Source: a bacterium
Lineage (GTDB): Bacteria > Electryoneota > JAOADG01
DNA: 64,000 bases
Direction of reading: 5' to 3'
NCBI GenBank assembly: GCA_963681965.1
Contig: OY820579.1
Location: 1,760,001-1,824,000 of the forward strand
Both the position numbers and the translations under genes were made by a program. The notes beneath the pieces are model-generated. The model was not told where the DNA came from. It did no database searches and was given only the letters and a program-made list of their open reading frames with translations. Positions 25,574-44,783 of the stretch are shown here, piece by piece (the stretch's first letter is position 1; each line of letters opens with the position of its first letter).

Positions 25574-27391
25574 ATGATCAAGTACTTTCCGAAATTCCTC
25601 GCGGTTGGATTGATTATCGTTTCCATAGCGATTTCCGTCCAAGCCAGCGGGTTCTCCGACGATACTCTCGTTTTGAAGGCGTTATCTGCGCTTAATCTCT
25701 CGCCATCGAACTTTGCGATTTCGCCTGATATCGAAACTCCCGATCCTTTCCGTAGTCCAATCATCACATATTTGTTATTGCACTCGGATCAACTAGAGTC
25801 TGTTTCGATGAAATTGACTGACAGTGTGTCAAAACAGTTGAAGATGTCTCCATCGATTACAAGTACGCTACCTGTGACTTGGGATAAAATCGTTACAGAT
25901 GCGAAACTAATTCGTGAGCGGAACTGGACCGGGTTTACTCCCGAAGAGCGAATAAAAGCTTTGTCCGACGTTCCCGATCTCTACCGGGAAGACGATAATG
26001 TTGCCGATCTCGATGTCTTTACGCTCAAAGAACGTCAAGAGATCGGTGCCGATTCGATGAAAGCGACGAATGCCTTAATCAAAAAGATTCACGGTTATAC
26101 CGACTGGAATCGATCATTGAATGCGTTGCGCGCATTTACTGCTTCGATTTCGGATACTAGTAATTGGGAAATGATATTTGGATCGCTTCGTCATACTCCA
26201 TTGGCTGGTGTGACCGGTGCAATTGTCGGATGGCAGGAAACATCGGGTGGCATCGTCATCATTGGCAGTAAAGCGCGAAATATCTACGACGGAGAATTTG
26301 CCGCAATCATCGACCTCGGTGGTAATGACGAGTATCGCGGTCGATTTGCTGGAAATAGTGAAAAAGTTCCAGTTGGATTGGTAATCGATTTTGAAGGCGA
26401 CGACTATTATCTCGCCGATTCCAATTTTTCTTGTGCCGGTGCGCGCGATGGTATTGCAATGCTGCTGGATTTCAGTGGAAACGATCATTACATCGGTAAT
26501 CAATGGTCGCAAGGTGCAGCAATGATGGGTGCATCGCTATTGGAAGACCGCTCTGGTTTCGATTCCTACGAAGCCGATGCCAACTCGCAAGGTTGTGCTG
26601 CATTTGGTTCGGCGTCCTTACACGATTTTACCGGTAATGATAACTATCGCATACACATGTACGGACAGGGTGTCGGTTTGATTGCGGGTTGGGGGACGCT
26701 GCTCGATGAACAGGGAGACGATCAATATCTGGCAACACCGCGATATGTCGATGTCTTGCGGTATCAAGATCATTCTCTGACACTTTCTCAAGGATTCGGT
26801 TACGGTCTACGTCCTAATTTCAGTGGTGGTTTCGGATTCCTGATCGATGAAACTGGTAGCGATTTTTACATGAGCGATATCTACGGTCAAGGTTGCAGTT
26901 ATTGGTATGCGCTGGGAGTATTGCTGGATAAAACCGGAAACGATCGGTATCTCGCATACCAATATGCACAGGGATCTGGGATACATATTTCTCTCGGTTT
27001 GCTGCGCGATGAAGCTGGTGACGATCATTACGACAGCAAAGGTGTTTCGCAAGGGTGTGGTCACGATCTTGGAACCGGCTATCTTCACGATTTGGCGGGC
27101 GAGGATAGCTATATCTGCAGCGATCTATCGCAAGGGGCGGGAAGTGCAAACGGTTTTGGTGTTCTGATCGACGATGCCGGTAACGATGTATATTCCAATC
27201 GCAATAGTGTATCAACCATGGGGTATGGTAATCCGCGACGAGATTACGGTTCAATCGGTCTTTTTTTGGATAAAGCTGGCGACGACCGTTATGCCGATAC
27301 CGATGCTGCCGATGGTCGAATGTGGCTGAGGGGAATTCGCGGAGTCGGTTGGGATATTGCCAAACCAGCGTTGAAAGGAGAGAAACCATGA
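25574..27391 (+). CDS. Secreted protein with about 12 DxxGxDxY repeats
   Basis: Signal peptide; GNDEY, GDDYY, GNDHY, GFDSY, GNDNY, GDDQY, GSDFY, GNDRY, GDDHY, GEDSY, GNDVY, GDDRY. Confidence 0.85.
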   Translation: MIKYFPKFLAVGLIIVSIAISVQASGFSDDTLVLKALSALNLSPSNFAISPDIETPDPFRSPIITYLLLHSDQLESVSMKLTDSVSKQLKMSPSITSTLPVTWDKIVTDAKLIRERNWTGFTPEERIKALSDVPDLYREDDNVADLDVFTLKERQEIGADSMKATNALIKKIHGYTDWNRSLNALRAFTASISDTSNWEMIFGSLRHTPLAGVTGAIVGWQETSGGIVIIGSKARNIYDGEFAAIIDLGGNDEYRGRFAGNSEKVPVGLVIDFEGDDYYLADSNFSCAGARDGIAMLLDFSGNDHYIGNQWSQGAAMMGASLLEDRSGFDSYEADANSQGCAAFGSASLHDFTGNDNYRIHMYGQGVGLIAGWGTLLDEQGDDQYLATPRYVDVLRYQDHSLTLSQGFGYGLRPNFSGGFGFLIDETGSDFYMSDIYGQGCSYWYALGVLLDKTGNDRYLAYQYAQGSGIHISLGLLRDEAGDDHYDSKGVSQGCGHDLGTGYLHDLAGEDSYICSDLSQGAGSANGFGVLIDDAGNDVYSNRNSVSTMGYGNPRRDYGSIGLFLDKAGDDRYADTDAADGRMWLRGIRGVGWDIAKPALKGEKP

Positions 27392-28545
27392 TCCGAGTTG
27401 CTCTGATGGGATTATTTCTCCTTGTAAATTCAGTAGTCTTTGCGCAGACAAACCCAGTTACTCAGCGAGAGACCGGAAAATCTAATGTCGATGAATTGCC
27501 GCCTCATCTCTGTAAAGGTCCTCTGAAACCGGGTTGGGAAGACCGTATCGTCTATTCCGCGGAATCCGACAAGCGCCTTTTCTGGGTTGCCAGCAGCGGC
27601 GAACCGAAATGGGCGGAAATTCGCCGGAAAGCCGATAGTACTCTCGTCGCACGTGGAATTATCGCAGTTCCATTCCTACTCACAAAACTCGCTACCGACG
27701 ATGCGCGTGAGAGTCAAACAGTTAACCTGATCTTGAAAAAAATCGGAAAACCTGCTATTCCATCGTTGATTGCAATTAATGACACGACGAAAGATCGCGA
27801 TATTAAGTCGATGGTATTGAAAACGCTTGGTGATATTGGTGATACTAGTGCCACTTCGGTGTTGATTACTGCAAGTACCGATACGTCGATTCGAATTCGC
27901 GGTGCGGCTGCAAGCGCATTGATGACAATGCCTGCCGGTGTTCCGGTCATCATGAAGCGACTTCGCGATTTTTCCCACGACTCGTGGGCAGGTATTCGTC
28001 GTACTTCGATTCGGGGATTGATCCTGATGGCGGATATTCCGTCGATTCCAGCGATCCTTTCATGTTTGGCAGATTCGTCTTATCCCGTTCGTGAAACCAC
28101 GATACAGGCACTGAGTTCACGACCGACTCATCACGACTCCCTTCAACCGGGACGATTAGACCAGATTACCGCTTTTCGGAACGCGTTAATGGATACTTTG
28201 GAACGACGCTTGAAACCATCTTGGCGATTGGATCGATATCTCTCATTCCGCACCGGTTTTGGTCTGTTTCCCGACTATCGCGAGGTTCGTGCCGACGAAT
28301 TCCCGATCAAGAATACATCGATGCTGGCAACTTATATACAAGTGTATCGGATTCTGCAAGGAACGGATGGCGACATTTGGCATGCTGCGGTAGTGAATCC
28401 ATCACCCGTAGTCAGAGCCGAAGCGTTGCGAGCCGGAACCAAACGGAAACTGGACGGTACTATTAGTGTCGAATCGTTTGCAAAACCATTACTGTGGGAT
28501 CAGGATCCGCAAGTATACTTCGTCTTGCGTGAAGTGTCGAAGTAA
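27388..28545 (+). CDS. Exported HEAT-repeat protein
   Basis: Signal peptide MIRVALMGLFLLVNSVVFA; repeats such as LGDIGD..A..VL and D....IRGAAASAL; ATGA overlap with the upstream gene. Confidence 0.8.
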   Translation: MIRVALMGLFLLVNSVVFAQTNPVTQRETGKSNVDELPPHLCKGPLKPGWEDRIVYSAESDKRLFWVASSGEPKWAEIRRKADSTLVARGIIAVPFLLTKLATDDARESQTVNLILKKIGKPAIPSLIAINDTTKDRDIKSMVLKTLGDIGDTSATSVLITASTDTSIRIRGAAASALMTMPAGVPVIMKRLRDFSHDSWAGIRRTSIRGLILMADIPSIPAILSCLADSSYPVRETTIQALSSRPTHHDSLQPGRLDQITAFRNALMDTLERRLKPSWRLDRYLSFRTGFGLFPDYREVRADEFPIKNTSMLATYIQVYRILQGTDGDIWHAAVVNPSPVVRAEALRAGTKRKLDGTISVESFAKPLLWDQDPQVYFVLREVSK

Positions 28546-28591: not shown

Positions 28592-30040
28592 GTGTATCAA
28601 AAAGTAAAAGCACTGGCTGGTCAATCGATCGTGTACGGGATTGGGCAAATCGCCACCCGTGCTGCCAGCTTTTTACTACTCCCTGCGTACAGTTACTGGC
28701 TAACTGTTTCTGAATACGGCGCAGTGACGCTCTATTATAGTTTTATCGGTGTTGCGCAGGTAATTTATATCTACGGTCTCGACATCGCTTTAATGCGCTA
28801 TTATGTGCCATTGAAAGAAGAGGAAGCACGAAAAAATCTCTTCGGTACCGTATTAACGCTCTCCATTTTTACTTCGACCATCCTAAGTGTCTTATTGTGG
28901 TTTTTCCGGGCACCTCTCGCGAATGTTGTTCTCGAAAAAGGGGGAGACCCGCTTATACTGATTTACTGTCTAGCTGTCCTCTGGCTAGATACTTTTATGG
29001 CACTCCCATTTGTCATCCTTCGCGCCAAACAGCGAGCATGGCAGTATACGTCACTCCGATTGTTTGGTGTGATTATTAATCTCGGAGCGAATTGGATTTT
29101 AGTAGGAGTATGGAAAACCGGGTTACAAGGAGTTTTGCTTGCCAATGTTGTTAGCTCCGCGGTGATTCTTCTTCCATTACTCTTGTTGATTCGAAAAGAT
29201 ATCGTTTGGCGGTTCAACGGTAATTTACTGGGACCAATCCTGAAATTCGGTTTGCCGAATATTCCTAACCTCTTTTTTGTCATGGTATTGGAGTTAAGTT
29301 CACGAAAACTCCTAGAAGTATATTCCTCGACAGAACAAACTGGTTTATACGGTGTAGGGGCGAAGTTGGGAATGGTTTTCTCGATTTTGGCAATGGCGTT
29401 CCGAAATGCTTGGGCACCATTTTTCCTTGAAGAAGGCGAAAAAAAGGATAGTCCGGAACTTTTTGCCCGTGTTTTGACCTATTTTCTGTTAAGTTTTGGA
29501 ATATTGTTTTTAGGATTAACTTATTTTCTCCCGCCTCTGGTGACGATGAAGCTTCCGTTACTAGGAGCGCCGATGATCGATAGGAAATTCTGGGGTGGAA
29601 TTGATATATTCCCTGTTATCCTATTAGGTCAAGTTTTTAACGGGATCGCTGCCAACTTGTCTGCGGGTTTCTATTTACGGAACCGCATCCATGTTCAAGC
29701 GTATATATCGGGTATTGCCGCTACTTTGAGCGTATTATTCTGTATCTGGTTGATACCTGTTTATGGATTGTGGGCTGCGGCATGGAGCATTGTCGTGGGG
29801 TACGGATGTATCGCCCTCGGCGAGTGGATCTATGCGCGAAAGAATTACCCAGTTCCATACGAAAATCGGCGATTGCTCCAATTATCGGTTGCAGTTGCCG
29901 TTTGGTGGTATCTCGGAGCGGTCGTAGTTCAATCGATGTGGTTGCGAATCCCGCTATTTATCTTGTTTCCTGTCTTGCTGTGGTTCACGGGCTTCTTTTA
30001 TACCAGTGAAAAACGTCGAGTGTTACAACGATTTCGATAA
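28592..30040 (+). CDS. Wzx-type oligosaccharide flippase (MOP superfamily)
   Basis: LAGQSIVYGIG, FLLLPAY, EYG, 12-14 hydrophobic segments, GLYGVGAKLG, AFRNAWAPF. Confidence 0.92.
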   Translation: MYQKVKALAGQSIVYGIGQIATRAASFLLLPAYSYWLTVSEYGAVTLYYSFIGVAQVIYIYGLDIALMRYYVPLKEEEARKNLFGTVLTLSIFTSTILSVLLWFFRAPLANVVLEKGGDPLILIYCLAVLWLDTFMALPFVILRAKQRAWQYTSLRLFGVIINLGANWILVGVWKTGLQGVLLANVVSSAVILLPLLLLIRKDIVWRFNGNLLGPILKFGLPNIPNLFFVMVLELSSRKLLEVYSSTEQTGLYGVGAKLGMVFSILAMAFRNAWAPFFLEEGEKKDSPELFARVLTYFLLSFGILFLGLTYFLPPLVTMKLPLLGAPMIDRKFWGGIDIFPVILLGQVFNGIAANLSAGFYLRNRIHVQAYISGIAATLSVLFCIWLIPVYGLWAAAWSIVVGYGCIALGEWIYARKNYPVPYENRRLLQLSVAVAVWWYLGAVVVQSMWLRIPLFILFPVLLWFTGFFYTSEKRRVLQRFR

Positions 30041-30044
30041 ATGA

Positions 30045-30072
30045 TTGCTTGAGTAAGCACATCTGTTATCAT
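30045..30072 (+). promoter_or_regulatory. Candidate sigma-70 promoter for the DUF2723 gene
   Basis: TTGCTT-16 nt-TATCAT with an extended -10 TG. Confidence 0.45.
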
Positions 30073-30112
30073 GTGTTCCCAATATGATTGTTGATATTCA
30101 GGAGGACTACTG

Positions 30113-33049
30113 TTGCTGCAAAATGCGATAAAGAAACCATCATTCTGGGTTGGGACGGGAATCTTCCTGTTCGCCTGGATTATTCTGCTCATGTCGAATG
30201 CGAATACGGTTTCATATTGGGACTGTGCCGAGAACGCTGCAAGTTCATTTATTCTAGGGGTTCCGCACCCACCGGGATCGCCATTGTTAATGGTGATGGG
30301 TCGGATTTCGGTTTTGCTTTTTCCATTCGGTGAATATGCCCAGCGTGGCTGCCAGTTAACTTCGCTGTTATCGGCACTGTCGGTTCTGGGAACATTTTTG
30401 ATTACGATGCGATTGATCCGGATGTTCCGCGGAAAAGAGGAAACCCTAAGCGATACAATAACTGTCTTGGGTGGTGCTGCCGTCGGTGCATTGGCGTTTG
30501 CGTTTACCCCGTCGTATTGGTTCAATGCCGTTGAATTCGGCGTTTGGGCACCTTCGCTATTTATGACAGTACTGGTGATCTGGCTGATTATCAAATGGTA
30601 CGATGAATCCCAGGACGGCTCGAAAGATCATTTACTCTTGCTGATCTTTTTCTTGAACGGATTAGGTCTATCGCTGCACCAATTGAATTTGTTGACGCTC
30701 CCGACCATCTTCTTGTTGATTTGGTTTCGAAATCGCCGACTTGCCTATTTTTTACTCGTCGGTAACATTATCTCTTACTTGATAATCGATATTCCGATTC
30801 ACGCTGCCGTACCAATCTGGTTGCAGGTCGCATCGGTTCCCATTGCAGCAGGATTTTACATCTATTACAACAACCAGAAAAAACACGATGCCGCGTTGAT
30901 TCCGATGGTTCACATTTTAACGTTCCTCGGGTTCTCGCTTTACATCATGCTCTTCCTGCGTGCAACAATGCATCCGCTAATCAACGAAAACGACCCCTCG
31001 ACGTTTGCACGAATTCACAGCTATCTGTCGCGCGAGCAATACGGAACCGACAACATGATGGCGGGAATGTTCAATCGGCGCGGACCATTCTGGGAATACC
31101 AGATCAAGAAGATGTATCTCCGGTATTTCGATTGGAACTTCATTGGTTCGTTCAAAGACATCTACTATCGTGAGAATCTTTCCGGGTGGCGCTATTTCGG
31201 TCTACCATTCTTCCTCGGATTATTTGGTATCGTGCATCATTACGTCAAGGATCGGAAGCAGTGGTTTGCCAACCTCGTGTTGTTCTTTATGACCGGTTTG
31301 GCGGTAGTATTGTATGTTAATCAAGACGATCCGCAACCCCGTGAACGAGATTATTCTTATACTGGTAGCTTCTTTGCGTTTGCTATCTGGATCGGCATTG
31401 GTGCTGTCGCAGTGATCGATACGATTGCCGAATTCTTGAAAAAGAAGCAACTCTCTCCTGCTATCGCCGGTATAGCAATCTTGGCACTCGCCTTGGCTGT
31501 TCCCGGACGAATGCTGCAAGTGAATTACTATCACTGCAATCGCAAAAACAACTTTGTTGCATACGATTACTCGCGTAATATTCTCGAAAGTTGCGCACCG
31601 AATGCCGTGCTTTTCACCAACGGAGACAACGATACTTTCCCCTTGTGGTATCTGCAAACGGTCGAGCATGTTCGTCCCGATGTAACTGTGGCGAATCTCT
31701 CGCTTATCAATACCGGGTGGTACATCAAGCAACTGCGTGACGTTTTCAAAGTACCCATTAGTTTCGATAACGAATTCATCGATAAGTATGTCGACGAAAC
31801 GACTGAAGATGCGATCATGAGCCGTTACTGGCCACCCGAACGACGTCGAATTACAATTAAGTCGCCTGAAGGTCCGATGACGTGGGAAGCGCCGGCAGCG
31901 TTTTACATTCCGACCGATCGCGAGGGTCGCGATCGCTCCCCGAACTTCCTTCGGGTACAGGATATGATGATCATCGACATCATGCGCTCGAATGTGCGAC
32001 CGGATGGCTCATGGAAACGTCCGATTTATTTTGCTGCGACGGTATCGAACAATGCGATGACCGGTTTATCGAATTTCGGAGTGATGGAAGGGTTGTCTTT
32101 CCGGATCCAGCCGAGACCCCGCGATAGCCGCATCAATCCCGATATGATGTTCGAGATGTTGATTCATAAGTTCAAGAACAATTATCGTCACTTGAATGAT
32201 CCGGCAGTTTACTACAACGAAAACGAATCGCGATTGTTGCAGAATTATCGCAGTTGCTTCCTACAGTTGGCGTTTTACTACTATCAAGGTATCATCGATC
32301 CTGCCGAACGATCGAAATCATCGGGAATCGCGAAGGCGCAATGGGAAGATCGCTTTAAAGAGTTACCTGCTCGCGAAAAGACTCTTTTCTTGTTGGATCG
32401 GATGGAAGAAATTATTCCTACTTCGGTCGTTCCATTCGATATGCCTGAATTGGTGATGCAAGTTGGCAAGATTTACAACGATTTAGGTCGTCCCGAAGAA
32501 ATGCGGAAGCGACTCGAATTGATGAGCCAAAATGCCGCTCCAGACGATATCGAGAATCAAATCTTGTTGGCTGGTTCGTACGAACAGTATATGAATCGTC
32601 CCGACGAAGCTCGAAAAATCTATTCGCGCATTTTCGGTAGCACTCCTGGTGCGGAAGATCTGTACCATGCCGGTGAAGTGCTATACAAGAGTGGTTTGGA
32701 TTCCGCTGCAGCACGTAAGTTTACCGAAGCTTTGCAACGCGGTAATCTTGCCGGTGAAAAGCAGATGCGGGTGGTTTCTTACATGATGCAGATGGGTCGG
32801 TATGCCGATGCCCAGAATGTTCTCGAACCGATGCATCAGGGAAATCCCGAGGATGGTCAAGCGCTTGGTGCGTTGGTTGCTCTGTATGAACGAACGAATC
32901 AAATTGATAAGATGATTCCGTTATTGTCGGATTGGGTTGCCAAACATCCACAAGACAAAGGTGCCGCCGAACGATTGGAATCAGCTAAGAAATCGGTTCC
33001 GAATTTGGCAAAATCGGTGAAACCGTCGAAACCATCGAAACGTAAATAA
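30113..33049 (+). CDS. DUF2723/TMEM260-family membrane protein (putative GT-C protein O-mannosyltransferase) with C-terminal TPR-like repeats
   Basis: TVSYWDCAE, GVPHPPGSP, ENDP, REQYG, QPRERDYSY, FTNGDNDTFPLWY, RPDV..NLSL; many TMs; helical repeats at the C-terminus; TTG start after GGAGG. Confidence 0.9.
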   Translation: MLQNAIKKPSFWVGTGIFLFAWIILLMSNANTVSYWDCAENAASSFILGVPHPPGSPLLMVMGRISVLLFPFGEYAQRGCQLTSLLSALSVLGTFLITMRLIRMFRGKEETLSDTITVLGGAAVGALAFAFTPSYWFNAVEFGVWAPSLFMTVLVIWLIIKWYDESQDGSKDHLLLLIFFLNGLGLSLHQLNLLTLPTIFLLIWFRNRRLAYFLLVGNIISYLIIDIPIHAAVPIWLQVASVPIAAGFYIYYNNQKKHDAALIPMVHILTFLGFSLYIMLFLRATMHPLINENDPSTFARIHSYLSREQYGTDNMMAGMFNRRGPFWEYQIKKMYLRYFDWNFIGSFKDIYYRENLSGWRYFGLPFFLGLFGIVHHYVKDRKQWFANLVLFFMTGLAVVLYVNQDDPQPRERDYSYTGSFFAFAIWIGIGAVAVIDTIAEFLKKKQLSPAIAGIAILALALAVPGRMLQVNYYHCNRKNNFVAYDYSRNILESCAPNAVLFTNGDNDTFPLWYLQTVEHVRPDVTVANLSLINTGWYIKQLRDVFKVPISFDNEFIDKYVDETTEDAIMSRYWPPERRRITIKSPEGPMTWEAPAAFYIPTDREGRDRSPNFLRVQDMMIIDIMRSNVRPDGSWKRPIYFAATVSNNAMTGLSNFGVMEGLSFRIQPRPRDSRINPDMMFEMLIHKFKNNYRHLNDPAVYYNENESRLLQNYRSCFLQLAFYYYQGIIDPAERSKSSGIAKAQWEDRFKELPAREKTLFLLDRMEEIIPTSVVPFDMPELVMQVGKIYNDLGRPEEMRKRLELMSQNAAPDDIENQILLAGSYEQYMNRPDEARKIYSRIFGSTPGAEDLYHAGEVLYKSGLDSAAARKFTEALQRGNLAGEKQMRVVSYMMQMGRYADAQNVLEPMHQGNPEDGQALGALVALYERTNQIDKMIPLLSDWVAKHPQDKGAAERLESAKKSVPNLAKSVKPSKPSKRK

Positions 33050-34104
33050 TGATGTTGGATCTGAAACGACTGCTCACTGTGGTTATTCCCCACAATGGCG
33101 GCTCGGAAATGTTGCTTGATTGTTTGCATTCGATCGCGCGGGACCCTGATGGGGTTCCGCGCGTATTGATTGTAGACAATGCTTCGCCGGACGATTCGAT
33201 TGCGATTGCCCGGTCAAAATTCGACTGGATCGAGATCCTTGAATCGGAAACCAATCGTGGTTATGCCGGTGGCTGCAATTTTGGATTAGCGGCAGTGAAT
33301 ACACCTTATGCATTATTGCTTAATAACGATGTCGTGGTCGAACCGGGCTGCTTCGCAACGATGGTGGAGCGCTTGGAGGCGCAGCCCCGGGTAGCAGCAG
33401 TACAACCGAAGATTCGATCCTTCCAGAAGCCGGATTATTTCGATTACGCTGGTGCGACAGGCGGATTGTTAGATTGCGATGGTATTCCCTTCGCATTTGG
33501 TCGCATTCTTGATTGTATGGAAATCGATCACGGTCAGTATGACGAGGCGCGAGATATTTTTTGGGCGTCTGGAACAGCAATCGTTCTGCGCATGGATGCA
33601 CTCCGGGAGGTAGGGTTCCTCGAAGAGGATTTTTTTGCTCATCAAGAGGAAATTGATCTCTGTTGGCGATTGCAAGCACGGGGCTGGTTGATCCAAACCG
33701 TGCCTAAAGCTACACTATTTCACCGTGGTGGAGCGACTTTGAACCGTTCTAGCAATCGAAAACTCTATTTAAATCATCGCAACAGTCTCTTGATGTGGTT
33801 GCGAAACAACGAGAAAATATCGGTATATACAGTAAGTCGTCGGGTCACGCTTGAATTTGCTGCATTTGGTGCTTACCTTTGTCACGGGGATTTTCAACGT
33901 GCTCGGCATCAAGTCGCTGCGTGGCGGTCGGTGTTAGGGCGATTGTCCCCTACCCTACGCGAGCGTCGGCGGCTACAGCTAGAGCGAGTAGTGTCCGACG
34001 TGTGTTTTCCGGGACGTTACGCCGGTTCGGTAGTATGGCAATACTACTTTCGACGACGGCGCTTCACGGCGGATTTTTTCCATTTTCATCTACGAGGAGA
34101 GTAA
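33049..34104 (+). CDS. GT2 family glycosyltransferase (rhamnosyltransferase-like)
   Basis: VDNASPD, NRGYAGGCN, LLNND, FWASG, FFAHQEEIDLCWR. Confidence 0.93.
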   Translation: MMLDLKRLLTVVIPHNGGSEMLLDCLHSIARDPDGVPRVLIVDNASPDDSIAIARSKFDWIEILESETNRGYAGGCNFGLAAVNTPYALLLNNDVVVEPGCFATMVERLEAQPRVAAVQPKIRSFQKPDYFDYAGATGGLLDCDGIPFAFGRILDCMEIDHGQYDEARDIFWASGTAIVLRMDALREVGFLEEDFFAHQEEIDLCWRLQARGWLIQTVPKATLFHRGGATLNRSSNRKLYLNHRNSLLMWLRNNEKISVYTVSRRVTLEFAAFGAYLCHGDFQRARHQVAAWRSVLGRLSPTLRERRRLQLERVVSDVCFPGRYAGSVVWQYYFRRRRFTADFFHFHLRGE

Positions 34105-34108
34105 AACT

Positions 34109-34840
34109 ATGCATGTGCGACTGGGAACGGTTCTCTTGATTGGGTTGCTTTCGCTGGCGATGGTTGTTTCTGCTGCCGACTTGAATCACAAGTACGGCGT
34201 GGAACTGCGCGGCGGTTATGGCACGATCGCAATGAAGGATGTTAATAACCAGACCGATTCGCTGTGGGGTCGTGGCGTGACCTCTGCAACAAAGCTGAGC
34301 GGAACCCCGTCTTTTGGAGTGTCGATTCTGTACCGCACGGATCCGCGCTTTTTGTGGGAATTTGGTTACAACGCTTTACCGGGTGGCGAGTGGAAAGCCA
34401 AACAAGCCGGAACCGGCAAAGAATCATCTTTGAAGATTAGCGGAAGCGAACTATTCATTCTTCCGACTTATCTCTTGATTGCCAACGACAATTTCACACT
34501 CGGTATCGGTGCAGGTCCCGATTTCGCATTCGTTAATGCAAATCGTTCTGGCGATATGGTCAGCATGAACTTCTCCAATGCCTCCGGTCGTACCGTTGGC
34601 GGTATGGTTAAGCTGAATGCTGAACTCGCGATGGGCAAAAACAACGCTTTGTCCCTGTCTGCTGGGTATCGTAATCACTACGTCGATCGTATTCATACTG
34701 AAGACGATGCCGGAACCCGTACTTACGTCGGTATTTCTACCGATGCAACGGCGCAGAATCTTCCGATCGACATGTCTGGTGCATTTTTCCAGGTTGGCTG
34801 GCGTTTCTATTATAGCCCCTCCAATTGGAAAGCCGAATAA
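34109..34840 (+). CDS. Putative outer-membrane beta-barrel protein
   Basis: Signal peptide; alternating amphipathic strands; ends GAFFQVGWRFYY plus a short tail. Confidence 0.75.
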   Translation: MHVRLGTVLLIGLLSLAMVVSAADLNHKYGVELRGGYGTIAMKDVNNQTDSLWGRGVTSATKLSGTPSFGVSILYRTDPRFLWEFGYNALPGGEWKAKQAGTGKESSLKISGSELFILPTYLLIANDNFTLGIGAGPDFAFVNANRSGDMVSMNFSNASGRTVGGMVKLNAELAMGKNNALSLSAGYRNHYVDRIHTEDDAGTRTYVGISTDATAQNLPIDMSGAFFQVGWRFYYSPSNWKAE

Positions 34841-34852
34841 GATAGAATTCGA

Positions 34853-35797
34853 TTGATGGAACGACTGCGGCGAGTTGCGGTCGAAATGTGTCCGGTCTGT
34901 GGTGCACAAGATTTTCGCCGATGGTTGTCGTTACCCGATCGTTTCCGGTTATCCGCTGAAGAAGCGTATCCGCTAGCGGAATGCAGGCGGTGCGGAGTCA
35001 GTTTCTTACAAGAACTGCCAGCAGCTGAGCTGCTGGCTTCTTGTTATCCGGAAGAAGGGTACGACCCGTTTATGTCTTCGGGTGGTCCGAGGTCATTATT
35101 AGACCGGATTTATATTTCACTGCGACATATCTCATTGGCGATACGTTTTCGACGGCTGGGACGCCCTCGACACGGGAATCGATTACTCGATGTCGGTTGC
35201 GGCACTGGCGAGTTTTTGGTGCATGCGCGAAAACGAGGATGGATCGGACAAGCGGTGGAACCATCGGCGAATGCTGCCGAACTCGTCAAAAAGAATGGTT
35301 TTGAATGTTTCAATGGCGATTTACCGGCTTTTCCAGTCCCCGAGCATAAATTTAACGGGATCACATTCTGGCACAGCCTCGAACATGTACCGGAACCGCG
35401 AAAAGTGCTGGAAAAAGCCGTTAGTATGTTAGCTGAACGCGGTCGAGTGGTTATTGCCGTTCCAAATGCTACCTCGTGGGATGCAAGGATCTATCAAGAG
35501 GACTGGATCGCTTACGACGCACCGCGCCATTGTACGATGTTTACCCCCGATTCTTTGCGTTTTTTAGCAGAACAAAGTGGACTACAAGTTAAGTCAGTCA
35601 GTGGTCTGATCTTCGATCTGGCATATAACTTGGTGCACAGTGAGCGTCTTCGAAAACAGCGTAGCGGTAAATTTGATTGGTATTTTCCACTCCGACTTTT
35701 ATGGGCAGCTTTACCAGCCGCTGTTGGTGGAGAAGCAGGCGCATCGGTGATCGTATTGGTTGCGGAAAAACCAGTCGTTAAGAAATTGTCCCTCTAG
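34853..35797 (+). CDS. Class I SAM-dependent methyltransferase with N-terminal Cys pairs
   Basis: CPVC...CRRC, LLDVGCGTGEF, WHSLEHVPEP, AVPN. Confidence 0.93.
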   Translation: MMERLRRVAVEMCPVCGAQDFRRWLSLPDRFRLSAEEAYPLAECRRCGVSFLQELPAAELLASCYPEEGYDPFMSSGGPRSLLDRIYISLRHISLAIRFRRLGRPRHGNRLLDVGCGTGEFLVHARKRGWIGQAVEPSANAAELVKKNGFECFNGDLPAFPVPEHKFNGITFWHSLEHVPEPRKVLEKAVSMLAERGRVVIAVPNATSWDARIYQEDWIAYDAPRHCTMFTPDSLRFLAEQSGLQVKSVSGLIFDLAYNLVHSERLRKQRSGKFDWYFPLRLLWAALPAAVGGEAGASVIVLVAEKPVVKKLSL

Positions 35798-35853
35798 CAC
35801 TATTAGGTTAGTATTCTTATACTTACATAAAAATTCTAATTGGCGAGATATCT

Positions 35854-36753
35854 TTGCGAGTATTGGTCACAGGTGGTGCCGGTCGTCTTGGTCGAAAACT
35901 GCTTCCAGAACTCTTCTGGAAAGGGCATGAAGTCGTTGCTATCGATGTGATCCCCATCCCTCCCCAAGAAAATCATCACTGGAAATCATCCGCTTTGGAT
36001 ATTACCGATTCAACCGCGGTAGATACGTATATCCAAGCCATTAAACCGGATGTGGTGATCAATACGGTTGCGATGACAAATGTCGATCTCTGTGAGACCG
36101 AGCGTGAGAAAGCTTATCGAATCAACGCCGATGTACCCGCCAAATTGGCAAATATTTGTCGAAAACATGATATTTACCTCATTCATGTTTCCACAGATTT
36201 TGTTTTCGATGGCAAAGCTGGACCTTATCCAGAATCAGCTTTACCTAATCCGATTAGCTATTACGGTCGCTCGAAATTAGCCGGCGAAAACGAAGTACTG
36301 GGCGAAAACCGACACTTTGCTGTCGTTAGAACCTGCGTCTTGTTTGGATATGAACCGGAAACAGCCCCGGACTTTGTAACTTGGTTGCTCTCGAAGCTTC
36401 GGCATAGCGAACCGGTTAAAATTGTCACCGATCAATTTTCCTCACCCACCCTAACCGACAGTTTAGCGACTGGTCTCCGTCAAATGGTAGAACAAACTCC
36501 CAGCGGCATATTTCATTTAGTGGGGAAAAGCTATTTCAGTCGGTTTGAAATGGCGATCGAGATCGCTACTATTGCCAACCTTTCCAAGGAACTGATCGAA
36601 CCGGTCGATGGTTCGAGTTTTGTACAAGCAGCTCAACGACCCAAATTGGGTGGATTGTTACCAGAACGAGCGGTTCGGGAGTTAGGGTTCAATGCATTGA
36701 CCTTTCAAGATGCGATGAAAATGTATTTCTCACAAGAGGCGGTTAGAAATTGA
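35854..36753 (+). CDS. rfbD: dTDP-4-dehydrorhamnose reductase
   Basis: VTGGAGRLG, TNVDLCE, VSTDFVFDG, YGRSK, DQFSSPT. Confidence 0.88.
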   Translation: MRVLVTGGAGRLGRKLLPELFWKGHEVVAIDVIPIPPQENHHWKSSALDITDSTAVDTYIQAIKPDVVINTVAMTNVDLCETEREKAYRINADVPAKLANICRKHDIYLIHVSTDFVFDGKAGPYPESALPNPISYYGRSKLAGENEVLGENRHFAVVRTCVLFGYEPETAPDFVTWLLSKLRHSEPVKIVTDQFSSPTLTDSLATGLRQMVEQTPSGIFHLVGKSYFSRFEMAIEIATIANLSKELIEPVDGSSFVQAAQRPKLGGLLPERAVRELGFNALTFQDAMKMYFSQEAVRN

Positions 36754-37529
36754 ATAATCAATACATCAACTTAGGAACACTGCAAGTGCCTCCCTCACGT
36801 TCTGATATACCACTCCGCAAAACGGTGATTGTCATTCCGACTTATAATGAGATCGAGAACATCGATCGTTTACTAACAACACTCAAGGATATGAATTTCG
36901 ACTTACATATCCTTTTTGTCGACGACAATTCACCCGATGGAACGGCTCAGCGAATTCAGCAATGGCAACAATCGGATCCGTGGATTCATCTTCTGCAACG
37001 ACCCGGCAAACAGGGCTTAGGTTCGGCATACGTTGCCGGATTTAAGTGGGCGTTACAAAATGGCTATGAACGAATCTTCGAGATGGATGCCGATTTATCC
37101 CACAATCCCAATGAAATACCGAATTTTTTACATGCCGCCGAAACTGCGGATCTCGTCATTGGGTCGCGGTACATCGCCGGTGTGAATGTGGTGAATTGGC
37201 CTCTCTCACGGTTGCTTCTGTCATATGGTGCTTCGCTGTATACGCGCACGATAACTGGCATGCCAATTAAAGATCCTACTGGAGGATTCAAGTGTTTTCG
37301 ACGCGAAGTATTGGAGAACATTAATCTTGATTCGGTTAAATCAAATGGATACAGCTTCCAGATTGAAATGAATTTCAAAACTTGGCGAAAGAAATTCAAT
37401 GTCAAGGAAATTCCAATTATTTTTATCGATCGAGCAGTGGGAAAATCGAAAATGTCGAAAGCTATTGTCCGCGAAGCTGTCATTATGGTTTGGCGGTTGC
37501 GTTGGCTTGCGATGACCGGACGCATCTAA
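36750..37529 (+). CDS. Polyprenol monophosphomannose synthase (Ppm1/DPM1-like GT2)
   Basis: IPTYNEIEN, VDDNSPDGT, GLGSAYVAGF, EMDADLSH, GSRY, GYSFQIEM, GKSKMS. Confidence 0.92.
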   Translation: MNNQYINLGTLQVPPSRSDIPLRKTVIVIPTYNEIENIDRLLTTLKDMNFDLHILFVDDNSPDGTAQRIQQWQQSDPWIHLLQRPGKQGLGSAYVAGFKWALQNGYERIFEMDADLSHNPNEIPNFLHAAETADLVIGSRYIAGVNVVNWPLSRLLLSYGASLYTRTITGMPIKDPTGGFKCFRREVLENINLDSVKSNGYSFQIEMNFKTWRKKFNVKEIPIIFIDRAVGKSKMSKAIVREAVIMVWRLRWLAMTGRI

Positions 37530-37530
37530 G

Positions 37531-39174
37531 ATGACACCGACTGATACAATAACAATTTCGGTTGTTATCGTAAATTTCAATGTTCGGTATCTCTTGGAGC
37601 AGTGCCTATTGTCCTTGCGGAGAGGCATTGAATCACTCAAACTTCAAATTATTGTTGTCGACAATGCGTCGTCGGATAACTCGATTAATTATCTAAAAGA
37701 ACGGTTTCCCGAGGTTGAATTTGTTGCGTTAGCTGAAAATATGGGTTTCGCCAAAGCGAACAATATCGGATTAGCTAAATGCATCGGCGAATACATATTA
37801 ATTCTCAATCCTGATACTGTACTAGTTGAAGACACCCTGCCTAAATTGACTGATTTTCTTAAATCCAATCCATCTTGTGGGTTAGTAACTCCGAAATTAA
37901 TAAGAAAAGATGGCGCCCTCGATCTGGCTTGTCGCAGAGCGCTTCCAACGCCGTGGGTGGCGTTCTCGCGGATTAGTGGTCTAAGTAATATCTTTCCTAA
38001 GTCTAAATTATTTAGTCAATATAATTTAACTTACCTCGATTGCGATCAACCAGCTCGGATCGGTTCATTAACCGGTGCATTCATGCTCATGCCAAGCGAA
38101 GTTTATCGAAAAGTGGGAGGTTTCGACGAGCAGTTCTTCATGTATGGGGAAGACATCGATTTTTGTGCGCGAGCTGCCCAGGCAGGTTATGAAATCCATT
38201 ATCGACCGGAAGCGACTGCAATCCACTACCGGGGTGAATCGACCCGCAGAAGTAGTTTAGATCGCACCGATGTGTTTTACAACGCGATGCTCCTTTACGC
38301 TCGAAAGCATTATCGAGGCGGATCGAAAAAAATTGGTTTACCATTATTGCAAACTGGAATCTTTTTCGCAAAAGCAGGCTCTCAAATCCTTCAAGGGTCA
38401 CGTTTGATCTGGCCGGTAATGCTGGATGCGGTTTTAATCGCAATCGCGTTAAATTTCGGGCAGTTGTTGCGATGGGGTTCGCAACTAGATTTACTCTTGG
38501 ATTTTCGCGTTTTAGTTGCTTATATCATTTTTGTGGTGCTTTCGTTAACTGCTGCGGGAGCTTATTCGGAATCGGTCAAGCAACTCCCGAAAGCAGCGTT
38601 TAAAGGAACGGTACTTGGATCTTTTGTAGCAGGTACGTATACTTTCTTTTTGCTTCAAGGATATATGTTTAGCCGGTTGGTAGTGCTCATCTCAGCATTA
38701 TTATGGTGTATTTTTCTGCCTGGGTGGCGTTTTTTATTGCTTCAAATGGCAAAAACCTCTTGGGCTAGAGGATTATTGCGTCGATCGGCGATTATCGTAG
38801 GTACGGATAGTTTAGCGAAATCGATCGGCGAACAATTTCAACACCAGCAGGGCGAATATGAAATTGTTGGATTTGTACGTTACCGTAATGAAGTTGTAGA
38901 TTCAAGTTTTGGATATGATCCATTAGGATCGACTGACGAACTCGATCGGATTGTTGAAACCGAGCGTGTGTCGGATGTATTTTTTTCTACCGGTGGTGCA
39001 TCGTATGCGGAAATTGTCGCACTGGCGAACCGCTTGGCACCACAAGGAGTTCATTTTAAAGTGCTATCGGCGGAAGCGCCAGGCTCGGCATTACCGTTAT
39101 TTGGGGTCGATTGGCAAACACCAATTGGCATCCGCGGATTAATGCGGCGTGTGCAGCGACGCTGGGGGTTATAA
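37531..39174 (+). CDS. GT2 glycosyltransferase fused to a TM bundle and a Rossmann-like (CoA_binding_3-type) domain
   Basis: VDNASSD, GFAKANN, LNPD, FDEQFFMYGEDID; then about 4-5 TMs and AIIVGT...YEIVGFV...LGSTDELDRIV. Confidence 0.88.
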   Translation: MTPTDTITISVVIVNFNVRYLLEQCLLSLRRGIESLKLQIIVVDNASSDNSINYLKERFPEVEFVALAENMGFAKANNIGLAKCIGEYILILNPDTVLVEDTLPKLTDFLKSNPSCGLVTPKLIRKDGALDLACRRALPTPWVAFSRISGLSNIFPKSKLFSQYNLTYLDCDQPARIGSLTGAFMLMPSEVYRKVGGFDEQFFMYGEDIDFCARAAQAGYEIHYRPEATAIHYRGESTRRSSLDRTDVFYNAMLLYARKHYRGGSKKIGLPLLQTGIFFAKAGSQILQGSRLIWPVMLDAVLIAIALNFGQLLRWGSQLDLLLDFRVLVAYIIFVVLSLTAAGAYSESVKQLPKAAFKGTVLGSFVAGTYTFFLLQGYMFSRLVVLISALLWCIFLPGWRFLLLQMAKTSWARGLLRRSAIIVGTDSLAKSIGEQFQHQQGEYEIVGFVRYRNEVVDSSFGYDPLGSTDELDRIVETERVSDVFFSTGGASYAEIVALANRLAPQGVHFKVLSAEAPGSALPLFGVDWQTPIGIRGLMRRVQRRWGL

Positions 39175-40133
39175 TGGAAACACTATTTCTCGATTTTGAA
39201 AAGAGAATTGCCGAAATCGAACAGGAGATTGATAATCTCCGCAACAACAGCAAACTAGATGCCGAAGATAAAGAACCATTAATTGCGAAATTGGAAGAAA
39301 AGACTCGCAAAGAGATGGAAAAAACTTTCTCGAATCTTACACGATGGCAGAAAGTTCAATTAGCTCGGCATCCTCGACGTCCTTATTCACTCGATTATAT
39401 CAAGCAGTTCGATCCCGACTTTTTGGAACTGAACGGCGATCGTGGATTTCGCAATGACCGTGCGGTTGTCGGCGGACTGTGTAATATCGACGGTATCCCG
39501 GTGATGGTGATCGCTCAGCAAAAAGGGCGAGGAACCAAAGAAAACCTACTTCGCAATTTCGGTATGAGTCATCCGGAAGGGTATCGTAAAGCGATGCGCT
39601 TGATGAAAGTTGCGGAACGGTTCAGCGTACCGGTCGTTTCGTTGATCGATACTCCTGGTGCTTATCCCGGTATCGGCGCTGAAGAGCGTGGTCAAGCAGA
39701 AGCAATTGCCCGCAATCTATTCGAGATGATCAATCTCAAGACACCGACTATTACGGTGATCATCGGCGAAGGCGGTAGCGGTGGCGCTTTGGCTTTAGCT
39801 GTCATGGATCGCGTTCTAATGATGGAATTCGCGATCTATTCGGTGATATCACCCGAAGGGTGCGCATCGATTTTGTTCCGTGACAGCTCGCAAGCAGAAA
39901 AAGCTGCGGAAAATCTAAAAATCACTGCCAATGATCTGGAGTCTCTCGGTGTAATCGATGAAATCATTCCAGAACCGTTGGGTGGTGCTCACCGTGACTA
40001 TTCGACTGCTGCCATCAACGTTCAGAAAGCGATCGGACGTAATCTCCGCGAGTTGATGGCGATCCAAAATCCCGATTGGCAGCAAATGCGCATCGAGAAA
40101 TATTCAAAGATGGGAGTATTTACGGTTGACTGA
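39174..40133 (+). CDS. accA: Acetyl-CoA carboxylase carboxyltransferase subunit alpha
   Basis: LDFEK, LARHPRRP, PEGYRKA, IDTPGAYPG, GEGGSGGA, YSVISPEGCA; TAATG overlap. Confidence 0.99.
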   Translation: METLFLDFEKRIAEIEQEIDNLRNNSKLDAEDKEPLIAKLEEKTRKEMEKTFSNLTRWQKVQLARHPRRPYSLDYIKQFDPDFLELNGDRGFRNDRAVVGGLCNIDGIPVMVIAQQKGRGTKENLLRNFGMSHPEGYRKAMRLMKVAERFSVPVVSLIDTPGAYPGIGAEERGQAEAIARNLFEMINLKTPTITVIIGEGGSGGALALAVMDRVLMMEFAIYSVISPEGCASILFRDSSQAEKAAENLKITANDLESLGVIDEIIPEPLGGAHRDYSTAAINVQKAIGRNLRELMAIQNPDWQQMRIEKYSKMGVFTVD

Positions 40134-40593
40134 ACCGTGGATCATTACCACCTCAGTCCGGGTACGTTACGCCGACACCGATAAAATGGGTGTAATGTAT
40201 TATGGGCGCTATATGGAATTGTTCGAAGTCGGTCGTACCGAATGGATTCGCGCCTGTTGGCGACCTTATGTCGAAATCGAACGTGAAGGTGTTTTACTGC
40301 CGGTAGTGCATGCTGCAGCGACCTACCGGCAGAGTTTTCACTATGATGATCTAATCCAGATCCGGACTTTCCCAGTCGGAATACAGAAAGCTAGAATTAG
40401 ATTTGGATATGAACTATTTGGTGATAACGATCAGCAACCGCGAATTATCGGTCTAACTGAACACGCTTTTGTCGATGAATCCGGTAAGACCGTCAGAATA
40501 CCGAGTAAATTGGCGCAGCTACTATCCGGGCGCGTTCCCGAGCAGTTAACGAAATTCGATTTACGCGACCATCTGTTGTCTTCGAACGGGTGA
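40126..40593 (+). CDS. YbgC/4HBT-family acyl-CoA thioesterase
   Basis: VRYADTDKMGVMYY, FEVGRTE, YDD. Confidence 0.92.
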   Translation: MTEPWIITTSVRVRYADTDKMGVMYYGRYMELFEVGRTEWIRACWRPYVEIEREGVLLPVVHAAATYRQSFHYDDLIQIRTFPVGIQKARIRFGYELFGDNDQQPRIIGLTEHAFVDESGKTVRIPSKLAQLLSGRVPEQLTKFDLRDHLLSSNG

Positions 40594-40692
40594 AACAAAC
40601 TAATTTCTGGAACATCTTAGCCCTAGCGACGTTGAATGTGAAGATAACAGTGTTTCGAATCACTTTTTCTGTGAATTGACTATCCAACGCTC

Positions 40693-40721
40693 TTGACAAT
40701 GCGTAACACCAAATGTAGATT
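40693..40721 (+). promoter_or_regulatory. Sigma-70-type promoter for the porU-porV operon
   Basis: TTGACA-17 nt-TAGATT in the intergenic region. Confidence 0.75.
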
Positions 40722-40757
40722 GTATCATATTATTGGAGAATGCCCTTAGCACCTTGC

Positions 40758-40838
40758 GACCGAACTAGGTTTGGCTAAATATAACCTGATCGACAACTCT
40801 GTCGATCACAGTTGTGCCGAACCTTGGGTTCGGTTTTT
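40758..40838 (+). promoter_or_regulatory. Structured 5' leader with terminator-like hairpin and alternative pairing
   Basis: TGATCGACA/TGTCGATCA stem; GCCGAACC-TTG-GGTTCGGT-TTTT; upstream AGGTTTGGC can pair with GCCGAACCT. Confidence 0.65.
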
Positions 40839-40858
40839 CGTTTGTTTGGAGAGATGGA

Positions 40859-44761: not shown

Positions 44762-44783
44762 TGGAATCAATACGGAGGATTGC

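Follow-up and report, generated by a model that had tools for sequence, protein, structure and literature searches.

Human TMEM260 (PDB 9rql, 9rqm and 9rqn) is a protein O-mannosyltransferase of the endoplasmic reticulum (ER) that acts on the IPT domains of plexins, cMET and RON and belongs to the family PF11028 (DUF2723). Its structure, as given in the available text of a preprint, comprises eleven membrane helices, a Rossmann-like 'palm' and 'fingers' made of tetratricopeptide repeats (TPR); the residues D52, H67, R264, Y267 and D441 are essential and the substitution R355A lowers activity, with D441 described as the catalytic base that deprotonates the acceptor Thr, and D52 and H67 as belonging to the donor site (10.64898/2026.03.17.711096). 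Larsen 2023 did no more than note 'distant homologs in bacteria' of TMEM260, and in the literature searched no function was assigned to any bacterial DUF2723 protein and no Bacteroidota O-glycosyltransferase was named. Here, a locus encoding such a bacterial protein is described, located at positions 28592-39174 of a 64-kb window (the whole stretch of DNA analysed, i.e. 64,000 nucleotides of contig OY820579.1) from the complete, 4.24 Mb genome of an uncultured member of a small phylum (79 genomes) in the Fibrobacteres–Chlorobi–Bacteroidetes (FCB) group. The locus may encode a route for protein O-glycosylation in the periplasm, in which the TMEM260-like transferase would be supplied with a lipid-linked sugar by a synthase of the same operon.

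The second described system that bears on the locus is the general O-glycosylation of Bacteroidota, which uses the sequon D-S/T-[AILVMT], an outer-glycan locus named lfg, and a core of mannose (Man) and optionally methylated rhamnose ((Me)Rha). The enzyme adding the first sugar of this glycan, together with the genes for the Man-Rha core, has been sought since 2009. According to the available texts, the conserved core at the reducing end contains Man, Rha and glucuronic acid (GlcA), deletion of lfg leaves a (methyl)deoxyhexose-hexose ((Me)dHex-Hex) residue, and a 2025 review calls the core machinery, including its flippase and transferase, 'undiscovered' (PMC12871550, PMC8729774).

The Pfam model PF11028 matched residues 37-208 of the transferase with 152 bits (cut-off 24.2), and the protein was also recovered in a search of the whole genome; PF10895, the accession given in an earlier reading of the window made from the sequence alone (the sequence-only reading), was incorrect for this family. 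In a phmmer search against proteins of solved structure, human TMEM260 (9rql) was matched with an E-value of 1.7e-12, and a profile of 35 orthologues matched the same structure with an E-value of 6e-29, the aligned part comprising membrane helices one to seven and the beginning of the Rossmann-like domain. The profile alignment reaches TMEM260 residues 364-484, with only two stretches aligning by sequence, and it pairs D37, H52 and D505 of the bacterial protein with D52, H67 and D441 of TMEM260, all three being invariant in 35/35 orthologues. The long TPR domain is likewise retained in the orthologues of the phylum.

The structure of the transferase was predicted with AlphaFold2 (AF2) from the 35-orthologue alignment (predicted local distance difference test (pLDDT) 85.2, predicted template modelling score (pTM) 0.81). 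The model places membrane helices up to residue ~475, followed by a periplasmic alpha/beta domain (~495-700) and the TPR domain (~703-961). The matches of both fold libraries did not include TMEM260 itself, and the fold comparison is one with other GT-C enzymes: ArnT was matched with a Z-score of 22.5 over 431 aligned residues, ALG12 with 21.8 (416), Pmt1-Pmt2 with 21.5 (383), Pmt4 with 20.6 (370), AglB with 20.0 (417) and PglB with 19.2 (446). Overall, the GT-C matches had Z-scores of 16-22.5, with AftB, EmbB, PimE and ALG enzymes also among them, and Foldseek concurred, with an E-value of 8e-6 to oligosaccharyltransferases and ArnT. The earlier assignment of the DUF2723 protein to the TMEM260 family, with a GT-C fold, is upheld by the hidden Markov model (HMM) score, the profile match, the AF2 model and the invariant residues. 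Judged by sequence, the transferase is a TMEM260-family GT-C enzyme in which the alignable catalytic residues are intact.

A second, shorter protein matching PF11028 (614-aa frame, G000:C1:4178616-4179113), which also matches PMT_2, is encoded by the same genome, as are several separate GT-C proteins of the PMT_2 type. Two full-length TMEM260-like paralogues in tandem were observed in KSB1-type genomes (L079, L080, L081 and L084). Three transferase orthologues (L008/G019, G068 and G003) read through in-frame stops (2 TGA, 1 TAG and 1 TAA), which may be assembly errors or signs of decaying copies.

Three proteins of glycosyltransferase family 2 (GT2) are encoded downstream of the transferase, and are here called GT2a, GT2b and GT2c. 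The sequence-only reading took GT2b for a polyprenol-phosphate-mannose synthase, and the comparison with solved structures agrees with it: the best relative is the dolichyl-phosphate mannose (Dol-P-Man) synthase of P. furiosus (5mlz; 124 bits, E 5.2e-35, residues 24-253), and the alignment spans the complete catalytic domain and takes in the DAD metal-binding motif. The next solved relatives, ArnC (7e-10) and GtrB (2e-5), were matched far less well, 5mlz being 25 orders of magnitude better. GT2b lacks a membrane anchor, and its true start lies perhaps ~20 codons further downstream. Its orthologues appear in public annotation under the name, and the name only, of polyprenol monophosphomannose synthase. 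None of the NCBIfam models reached its cut-off with GT2b, the best being PpgS with 59 bits (cut-off 370), and the AglJ model TIGR04182 was matched at 55.6 bits, below its cut-off. The homology indicates that GT2b is probably a Dpm1/Ppm1-like polyprenol-phosphate hexose synthase with mannose as its sugar.

For the other two enzymes the comparison with solved structures gave generic GT2 matches only (best E-values 1.7e-5 for GT2a and 2.6e-7 for GT2c). GT2a has weak matches to the rhamnosyltransferase subfamily TIGR01556 and contains no hydrophobic segment. GT2c matches positions 2-221 of the 445 of TIGR03025, and the Bac_transf catalytic domain is missing. Look-ups of the locus proteins in the Atlas yielded no more than 'GT2' and 'small OMP barrel' (OMP, outer membrane protein). 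In other FCB lineages, GT2b is the single gene separating the GT2c orthologue from a full WbaP-type enzyme (L203, L208, L228, L230, L239 and L241), which hints that the WbaP-type module shared by GT2c and the full-length enzyme mediates an interaction.

A full-length transferase orthologue was found in 79/79 genomes of the phylum, with the closest homologues labelled KSB1, LCP-89, Calditrichota or Zixibacteria in the sources. The gene neighbourhood was assessed in 40 of the 79 loci, representing all nine families and extending up to 20 kb each (13/40 were shorter, with a contig end near), using tblastn with the proteins of the window (E<1e-10, at least 40% coverage, same strand). GT2a, the most persistent neighbour, was located beside the transferase in 39/40 loci, the beta-barrel protein in 36/40, GT2b in 35/40, GT2c in 34/40 and AccA in 32/40, followed by the thioesterase (20/40), RmlD (19/40, directly upstream of GT2b) and the methyltransferase (18/40). 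The genes on the other side were hardly ever retained: the Wzx flippase candidate, a HEAT-repeat protein and a 605-aa protein were present in 1/40 loci each, and iPGM and the HhH glycosylase in 0/40 each. Since the upstream flank, which serves as an internal control, is shared in only 0-1/40 loci, the downstream block has been kept selectively, and Wzx, listed as a locus member in the sequence-only reading, does not belong to what is conserved. One large family deviates from the common arrangement in that GT2a is located upstream of the transferase, GT2c is a bare GT2 of ~286 aa, and neither methyltransferase nor RmlD is present.

Relatives outside the phylum were retrieved by a pattern scan with one genome per species, the motif of the D505 region being one of the two patterns used, and 602/603 matched stretches proved to be relatives. 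From these, 79 wider loci were kept, belonging to KSB1, Calditrichota, Marinisomatota, Latescibacterota, Ignavibacteria, Chlorobi and Balneolales; cultured Chlorobaculum and Prosthecochloris are among the Chlorobi with transferase relatives, and PF11028 was also matched in Bacteroides thetaiotaomicron. Beside the transferase, the wider loci contained GT2a in 19/79, GT2b in 12/79, RmlD in 10/79 and Wzx in 0/79 cases. The loci linked to GT2b are of the KSB1/Calditrichota kind, where RmlD is again directly upstream of GT2b, and DUF2723 is again paired with GT2a in Marinisomatota, Latescibacterota and one lineage of the broad Bacteroidota.

For co-occurrence, 151 genomes were drawn evenly from the Bacteroidota in the broad sense, which includes Chlorobia, with Chlorobaculum among them. 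PF11028 was found in 151/151 genomes, with open frames mostly of ~880-1300 aa, and a GT2b orthologue was equally present in 151/151, with 44-62% identity and in single copy in all but one; it was also found in 5/5 named genomes, including Chlorobaculum and Prosthecochloris. GT2a orthologues were detected in 116/151 genomes (E<=1e-30) and methyltransferase homologues in 68/151 (E<=1e-15). DUF2723-Ppm1 synteny is found across the phylum but does not extend across the FCB group, being present in 12/79 wider loci and, for true GT2b orthologues, in none of 40 broad-Bacteroidota transferase loci; what extends across the broad Bacteroidota is the co-occurrence of the two genes.

The presence of the two enzymes in one operon suggests how they might work together. 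A GT-C enzyme of the TMEM260 family needs a lipid-phosphate sugar, and GT2b, the sole Dpm1-like gene nearby, is therefore the likely source of the donor. On the cytoplasmic face, GT2b would transfer mannose from GDP-Man to polyprenol phosphate. GT2a and/or GT2c could then add RmlD-derived rhamnose to the lipid-linked sugar, and the methyltransferase an O-methyl group, before the lipid-linked unit is flipped across the membrane, for which the adjacent Wzx would be the flippase in the window's own family. In the periplasm, the TMEM260-like enzyme would bind the donor in its membrane domain, the alpha/beta and TPR domains would hold part of an exported protein in extended form, and a Ser/Thr hydroxyl would receive the sugar, D505 serving as the base while D37 and H52 position the donor. 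All these steps are derived from homology, and by the same reasoning we infer the sugar to be mannose and the acceptor to be protein, as well as the choice between one sugar and a (Me)Rha-Man unit and the identity with the D-S/T system. A periplasmic protein O-glycosylation route using a lipid-phosphate sugar is the function proposed here for the operon, albeit tentatively and with a confidence a little short of even.

The position of the modifying enzymes restricts what they could contribute. GT2a, GT2b, RmlD and the methyltransferase have neither signal peptide nor membrane segment, and GT2c, with hydrophobic segments at 289-397, has no signal peptide either. The sequence-only reading had the enzymes of the locus extend or decorate protein-bound mannose; this is ruled out, since GT2a, GT2c and the methyltransferase, being cytoplasmic enzymes that use cytoplasmic donors, cannot modify a periplasmic glycoprotein, and they would instead act on the lipid-linked intermediate before it is flipped. 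Alternatively, these three enzymes possibly belong to another pathway, with the transferase adding a single mannose.

If they do belong together, the operon could be the missing core-glycan module of general O-glycosylation in the FCB group, in which (Me)Rha-Man is assembled on polyprenol monophosphate, flipped, and moved en bloc to Ser/Thr. This extended form of the proposal is considered doubtful. If true, it would carry the logic of the archaeal Agl pathway over to O-linked glycans in bacteria and provide the first relative of GT-C O-mannosyltransferases that moves more than one sugar.

Several observations weigh against protein O-glycosylation by this operon. Concerning the transferase itself, the regions of TMEM260 containing R264, Y267 and R355 were left unaligned by both phmmer and the profile, and the invariant R307-x-x-Y310 and R410/R412 are mere candidates for their equivalents. 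Moreover, GT-C enzymes of similar fold act on lipid A, arabinan or lipid-linked glycans. We know of no GT-C O-mannosyltransferase that moves a disaccharide off a monophosphate carrier, and to our knowledge reports of D-S/T glycosylation are confined to the classical Bacteroidota. Concerning the operon, adjacency of Wzx to the transferase is restricted to the window's own family, most other families have DUF4837 and PurE lodged between methyltransferase and RmlD, and the conserved block includes the housekeeping genes PurE, AccA and the thioesterase; as these are unrelated genes, the kept gene order is no proof of shared function. Beyond the phylum, GT2a is missing from 35/151 broad-Bacteroidota genomes and the methyltransferase from 83/151, GT2a is present in only 1/40 of the transferase loci that lack true GT2b, and the 40 GT2b loci examined in the same group were without transferase, RmlD, GT2a or methyltransferase. 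Finally, 6/6 scanned ORFs (open reading frames) of 460-490 aa next to GT2b in these loci are full WbaP-type phosphotransferases, and GT2b together with a WbaP-type enzyme and Wzx looks like a lipid-diphosphate glycan pathway.

A single one of the 40 broad-Bacteroidota transferase loci has a GT2b paralogue, of 28% identity, and by coordinates GT2a adjoins the transferase in five broad-Bacteroidota genomes, all of one lineage. Around GT2b, the 40 loci contained AccA in 17 cases, GT2c in 17, the thioesterase in 14 and a Wzx homologue in 6; the latter, with 28-30% identity to the Wzx of the window, follow GT2b-GT2c-AccA-thioesterase in 6/40 loci. Among the unidentified neighbour ORFs, 59/125 were scanned, and the neighbours other than those named are unrelated housekeeping genes. 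GT2b-GT2c-AccA-thioesterase(-Wzx) is accordingly an old block of its own, which joins the transferase module only in the phylum of the window and its nearest relatives. The order GT2b-(GT2c)-AccA-thioesterase (36750-40593 in the window; L203-L242) persists from the phylum into the broad Bacteroidota, and with it AccA, a gene of fatty-acid synthesis, stays packed with a putative lipid-sugar synthase.

A rival explanation is a three-component system, in which GT2b would make a polyprenol-phosphate hexose from which the GT-C enzyme adds a single sugar to a non-protein acceptor of the envelope, such as the core or lipid A of lipopolysaccharide (LPS), a lipoglycan or a wall polymer. Such systems are common in bacteria, according to the available text of PMC11127046, and the arrangement would parallel ArnC/ArnT, GtrB/GtrC and the mycobacterial Ppm1-dependent mannosyltransferases. 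The fold comparison, led by ArnT and including AftB, EmbB, PimE and ALG enzymes, is compatible with it, the universal single-copy presence would also be in keeping with a core lipid or glycan of the envelope, and in other lineages the neighbours of GT2b include WbaP-type, GT4 and Wzx genes as well as genes for sugar modification. The explanation is nonetheless rather unlikely, as the nearest family in sequence, by a wide margin, is one of protein O-mannosyltransferases, the Asp with which TMEM260 deprotonates the acceptor Thr is invariant here and located in the periplasmic alpha/beta domain, and the long TPR domain, which in TMEM260 binds an extended peptide, has been kept throughout the orthologues of the phylum. 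Furthermore, no small flippase of the GtrA or ArnE/F type was found among the scanned ORFs of at least 80 aa.

The block structure described above admits another explanation, in which the locus is a mosaic of a transferase-GT2a-barrel module and an older RmlD-GT2b-GT2c-AccA-thioesterase block for a lipid-diphosphate glycan such as LPS or exopolysaccharide, the two being neighbours through inherited gene order and not through a shared pathway. This would account for PurE and DUF4837 parting the two halves in most families, for AccA and the thioesterase being packed into the unit, for the family with its displaced GT2a and no methyltransferase or RmlD, and for the block occurring without the transferase in 17/40 broad-Bacteroidota loci, accompanied by the WbaP-type enzyme and Wzx. 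On the other hand, the two halves have stayed within 10 kb of each other in 35/40 loci, across families whose transferases share only 38-45% identity and in which the upstream flank is not kept. The GT-C enzyme still needs a lipid-phosphate donor, for which GT2b is the only Dpm1-like candidate nearby, and both genes are present in every one of the 151 sampled genomes. Taken together, a mosaic of this kind is unlikely. The loci with the DUF4837/PurE insertion include L037-L041, L048-L050, L053, L055 and L058, and a search of the whole genome of the window recovered no DUF4837.

An ordinary Wzx/Wzy O-antigen or capsule locus, with the DUF2723 protein as a bystander or a substitute for polymerase or ligase, is very improbable, as the typical cluster content of Wzx, three GT2 enzymes, RmlD and a methyltransferase is set against Wzy, Wzz, WaaL and the initiating phosphotransferase being encoded not in the locus but elsewhere in the genome, a content and order that are conserved across the phylum instead of hypervariable, a G+C content like that of the surroundings, and the absence of Wzx from 39/40 related loci.

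The layout of the locus was assessed by scanning ORFs with Pfam and NCBIfam over the stretch 23334-45830. Eight back-to-back ORFs, all on the + strand, fill the locus with gaps of -4 to 72 bp between genes, and the gene list of the sequence-only reading was confirmed, coordinates included, by ORF calls and family matches (Table 1). The start of GT2a and the stop of the transferase overlap by one base. The end previously set at 39174 proved to be too early: the packed unit continues, with the ATG of AccA overlapping the stop of GT2c, to the thioesterase as its last gene, and the first sizeable gap (220 bp, 40593-40814) separates the latter from porU.

Table 1. Genes of the packed unit, with window coordinates and family matches
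Feature	Coordinates	Strand	Size and matches
Wzx-like MOP-family flippase candidate	28592..30040	+	482 aa, ~12 hydrophobic segments; PF01943 2.6e-14, PF13440 8.8e-14
TMEM260-like (PF11028/DUF2723) GT-C glycosyltransferase	30113..33049	+	978 aa; PF11028 152 bits, C-terminal TPRs
GT2a, soluble family-2 glycosyltransferase	33049..34104	+	351 aa; PF00535 2e-19, 70.6 bits
Small outer-membrane beta-barrel protein	34109..34840	+	243 aa; PF13505/OMP_b-brl 26.7 bits, under cut-off 28.7
S-adenosylmethionine (SAM)-dependent methyltransferase	34853..35797	+	314 aa; PF13489 (Methyltransf_23) 3.9e-29, 101.9 bits; cytoplasmic
RmlD, dTDP-4-dehydrorhamnose reductase	35854..36753	+	TIGR01214 248.3 bits vs equivalog cut-off 224
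GT2b, Dpm1/Ppm1-like GT2	36750..37529	+	259 aa; PF00535 106 bits
GT2c, GT2 fused to WbaP-type membrane/CoA_binding_3 module	37531..39174	+	PF00535 1.4e-19, PF13727 1.6e-8
AccA, acetyl-CoA carboxylase carboxyltransferase alpha	39174..40133	+	NF004344 474 bits; housekeeping, no glycan enzyme
YbgC/FadM-type acyl-CoA thioesterase	40126..40593	+	PF13279 6.9e-17, TIGR00051 62 bits

The match of the flippase candidate to the Pfam model Polysacc_synt/Wzx scored 53.7 bits (cut-off 28.2). The barrel assignment also fits an N-terminal hydrophobic segment and the language-model (Atlas) neighbours, which are small OMP barrels, and the methyltransferase carries a Cys-x2-Cys ... Cys-x2-Cys segment at its N-terminus. 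As the sequence-only reading had stated, Wzy, Wzz and WaaL could not be recognised, and neither these nor initiating phosphotransferase domains were found by Pfam in the ORFs of the locus; three Wzy_C proteins and two Bac_transf proteins are encoded elsewhere in the genome. The only protein of the genome passing the cut-off of the RmlB model TIGR01181 is located 5.6 kb past the end of the window (G000:C1:1829620-1830576), and an RmlC-like gene is 1.85 Mb distant from the locus. RmlB or RmlC had been expected in the gap between methyltransferase and RmlD in other families, but the genes there were DUF4837 and PurE.

The common orientation of the genes, to which the sequence-only reading had given weight, is uninformative because the 64-kb window is coded almost entirely on the + strand: every long ORF with a family match in 23334-45830, and nearly all long ORFs of the window, are encoded there. 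Scans for promoters (34 found, 30.1±5.5 expected) and terminators (23 found, 21.4±4.1 expected) remained at chance level, and no operon boundary could be obtained from either. The G+C content of the locus (0.44-0.49) is similar to that of its surroundings. Raw counts of D-[ST]-[AILVMT] ranged from 0 to 4 in each of the locus proteins, with 8 in PorU, and are likewise uninformative.

Directly downstream of the unit, porU (a type IX secretion system (T9SS) sortase, NF033707 619 bits) starts at 40814 and is followed by a further ORF (span 40814-45830), homologues of which come after AccA in the Calditrichota-type loci L091 and L094. Upstream, 25574-28545 contains the 605-aa protein, with one N-terminal hydrophobic segment and no match in Pfam or NCBIfam, and then the HEAT-repeat protein, a pair that stands ahead of Wzx and the transferase in no family but that of the window (L034).

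What is new here is a phylum-wide operon that names likely partners of a DUF2723 enzyme. A guess about a single gene is thereby turned into a specific, testable set consisting of the transferase, the Dpm1-like synthase, GT2a, the methyltransferase and RmlD, with clear orthologues in cultured, tractable relatives. Should protein O-glycosylation be confirmed, the TMEM260 family, for which only a human gene of a developmental disease has been known, would gain a bacterial function and an evolutionary origin.

Compared with human TMEM260, the transferase has the same family assignment, the same succession of GT-C, alpha/beta (Rossmann-like) and TPR domains, and the equivalents of D52, H67 and D441. 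It differs in being larger (978 aa, compared with 707 aa), with a bigger alpha/beta domain and a longer TPR array, and in being bacterial and periplasmic, with the presumed donor synthase encoded in the same operon; one would not expect the IPT sequon to apply. Among the Dol-P-Man and polyprenol-P-Man synthases (P. furiosus 5mlz, eukaryotic DPM1 and mycobacterial Ppm1), GT2b aligns with 5mlz across its whole catalytic domain, and is unlike this archaeal enzyme in having no membrane helices. Human DPM1 and the catalytic domain of Ppm1 are likewise without membrane helices and need a membrane partner.

In combination, a cytoplasmic lipid-phosphate-mannose synthase and an extracytoplasmic GT-C transferase are also the elements of the actinobacterial Pmt/Ppm1 and eukaryotic PMT/TMTC systems; clients would be selected here by the TPR domain, as in TMTC and TMEM260 (PMC10214176). 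The present enzyme is distinguished from their PMT/PMT_2 enzymes by belonging to a separate GT-C family, PF11028, and by lacking a MIR domain. Of the parts of three-component systems of the GtrABC and ArnC-ArnT-ArnEF type, the locus has a synthase-like GT2b and a GT-C enzyme; the small flippase was not seen among the scanned ORFs of at least 80 aa, and Wzx is adjacent only in the family of the window. The Haloferax Agl pathway (AglJ, AglG/I/E, AglP, AglR and AglB) begins with a Dpm1-like step on a lipid monophosphate and continues with extension by GT2 enzymes, SAM-dependent methylation, Wzx-like flipping and transfer by a GT-C enzyme. It is N-linked and archaeal, with an STT3-type transferase, and is a mere precedent for en-bloc transfer.

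The locus can also be compared with the O-glycan core of Bacteroidota. It combines a mannose-lipid synthase, RmlD, a methyltransferase, GT2 enzymes and a homologue of a protein O-mannosyltransferase, a predicted content that fits the enzyme set expected for a (Me)Rha-Man core, and the mixture of Man, Rha and methyl genes pointed out in the sequence-only reading does match the published residual (Me)dHex-Hex. The differences are that the host lies outside the classical Bacteroidota and that the published model assumes an en-bloc oligosaccharyltransferase in place of a single-sugar mannosyltransferase. In Bacteroidota themselves the candidate genes are scattered, so that genomic context is uninformative there, whereas in this sister lineage they form one operon. 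The system proposed from these genes would resemble a known kind, namely lipid-phosphate-mannose-dependent protein O-mannosylation.

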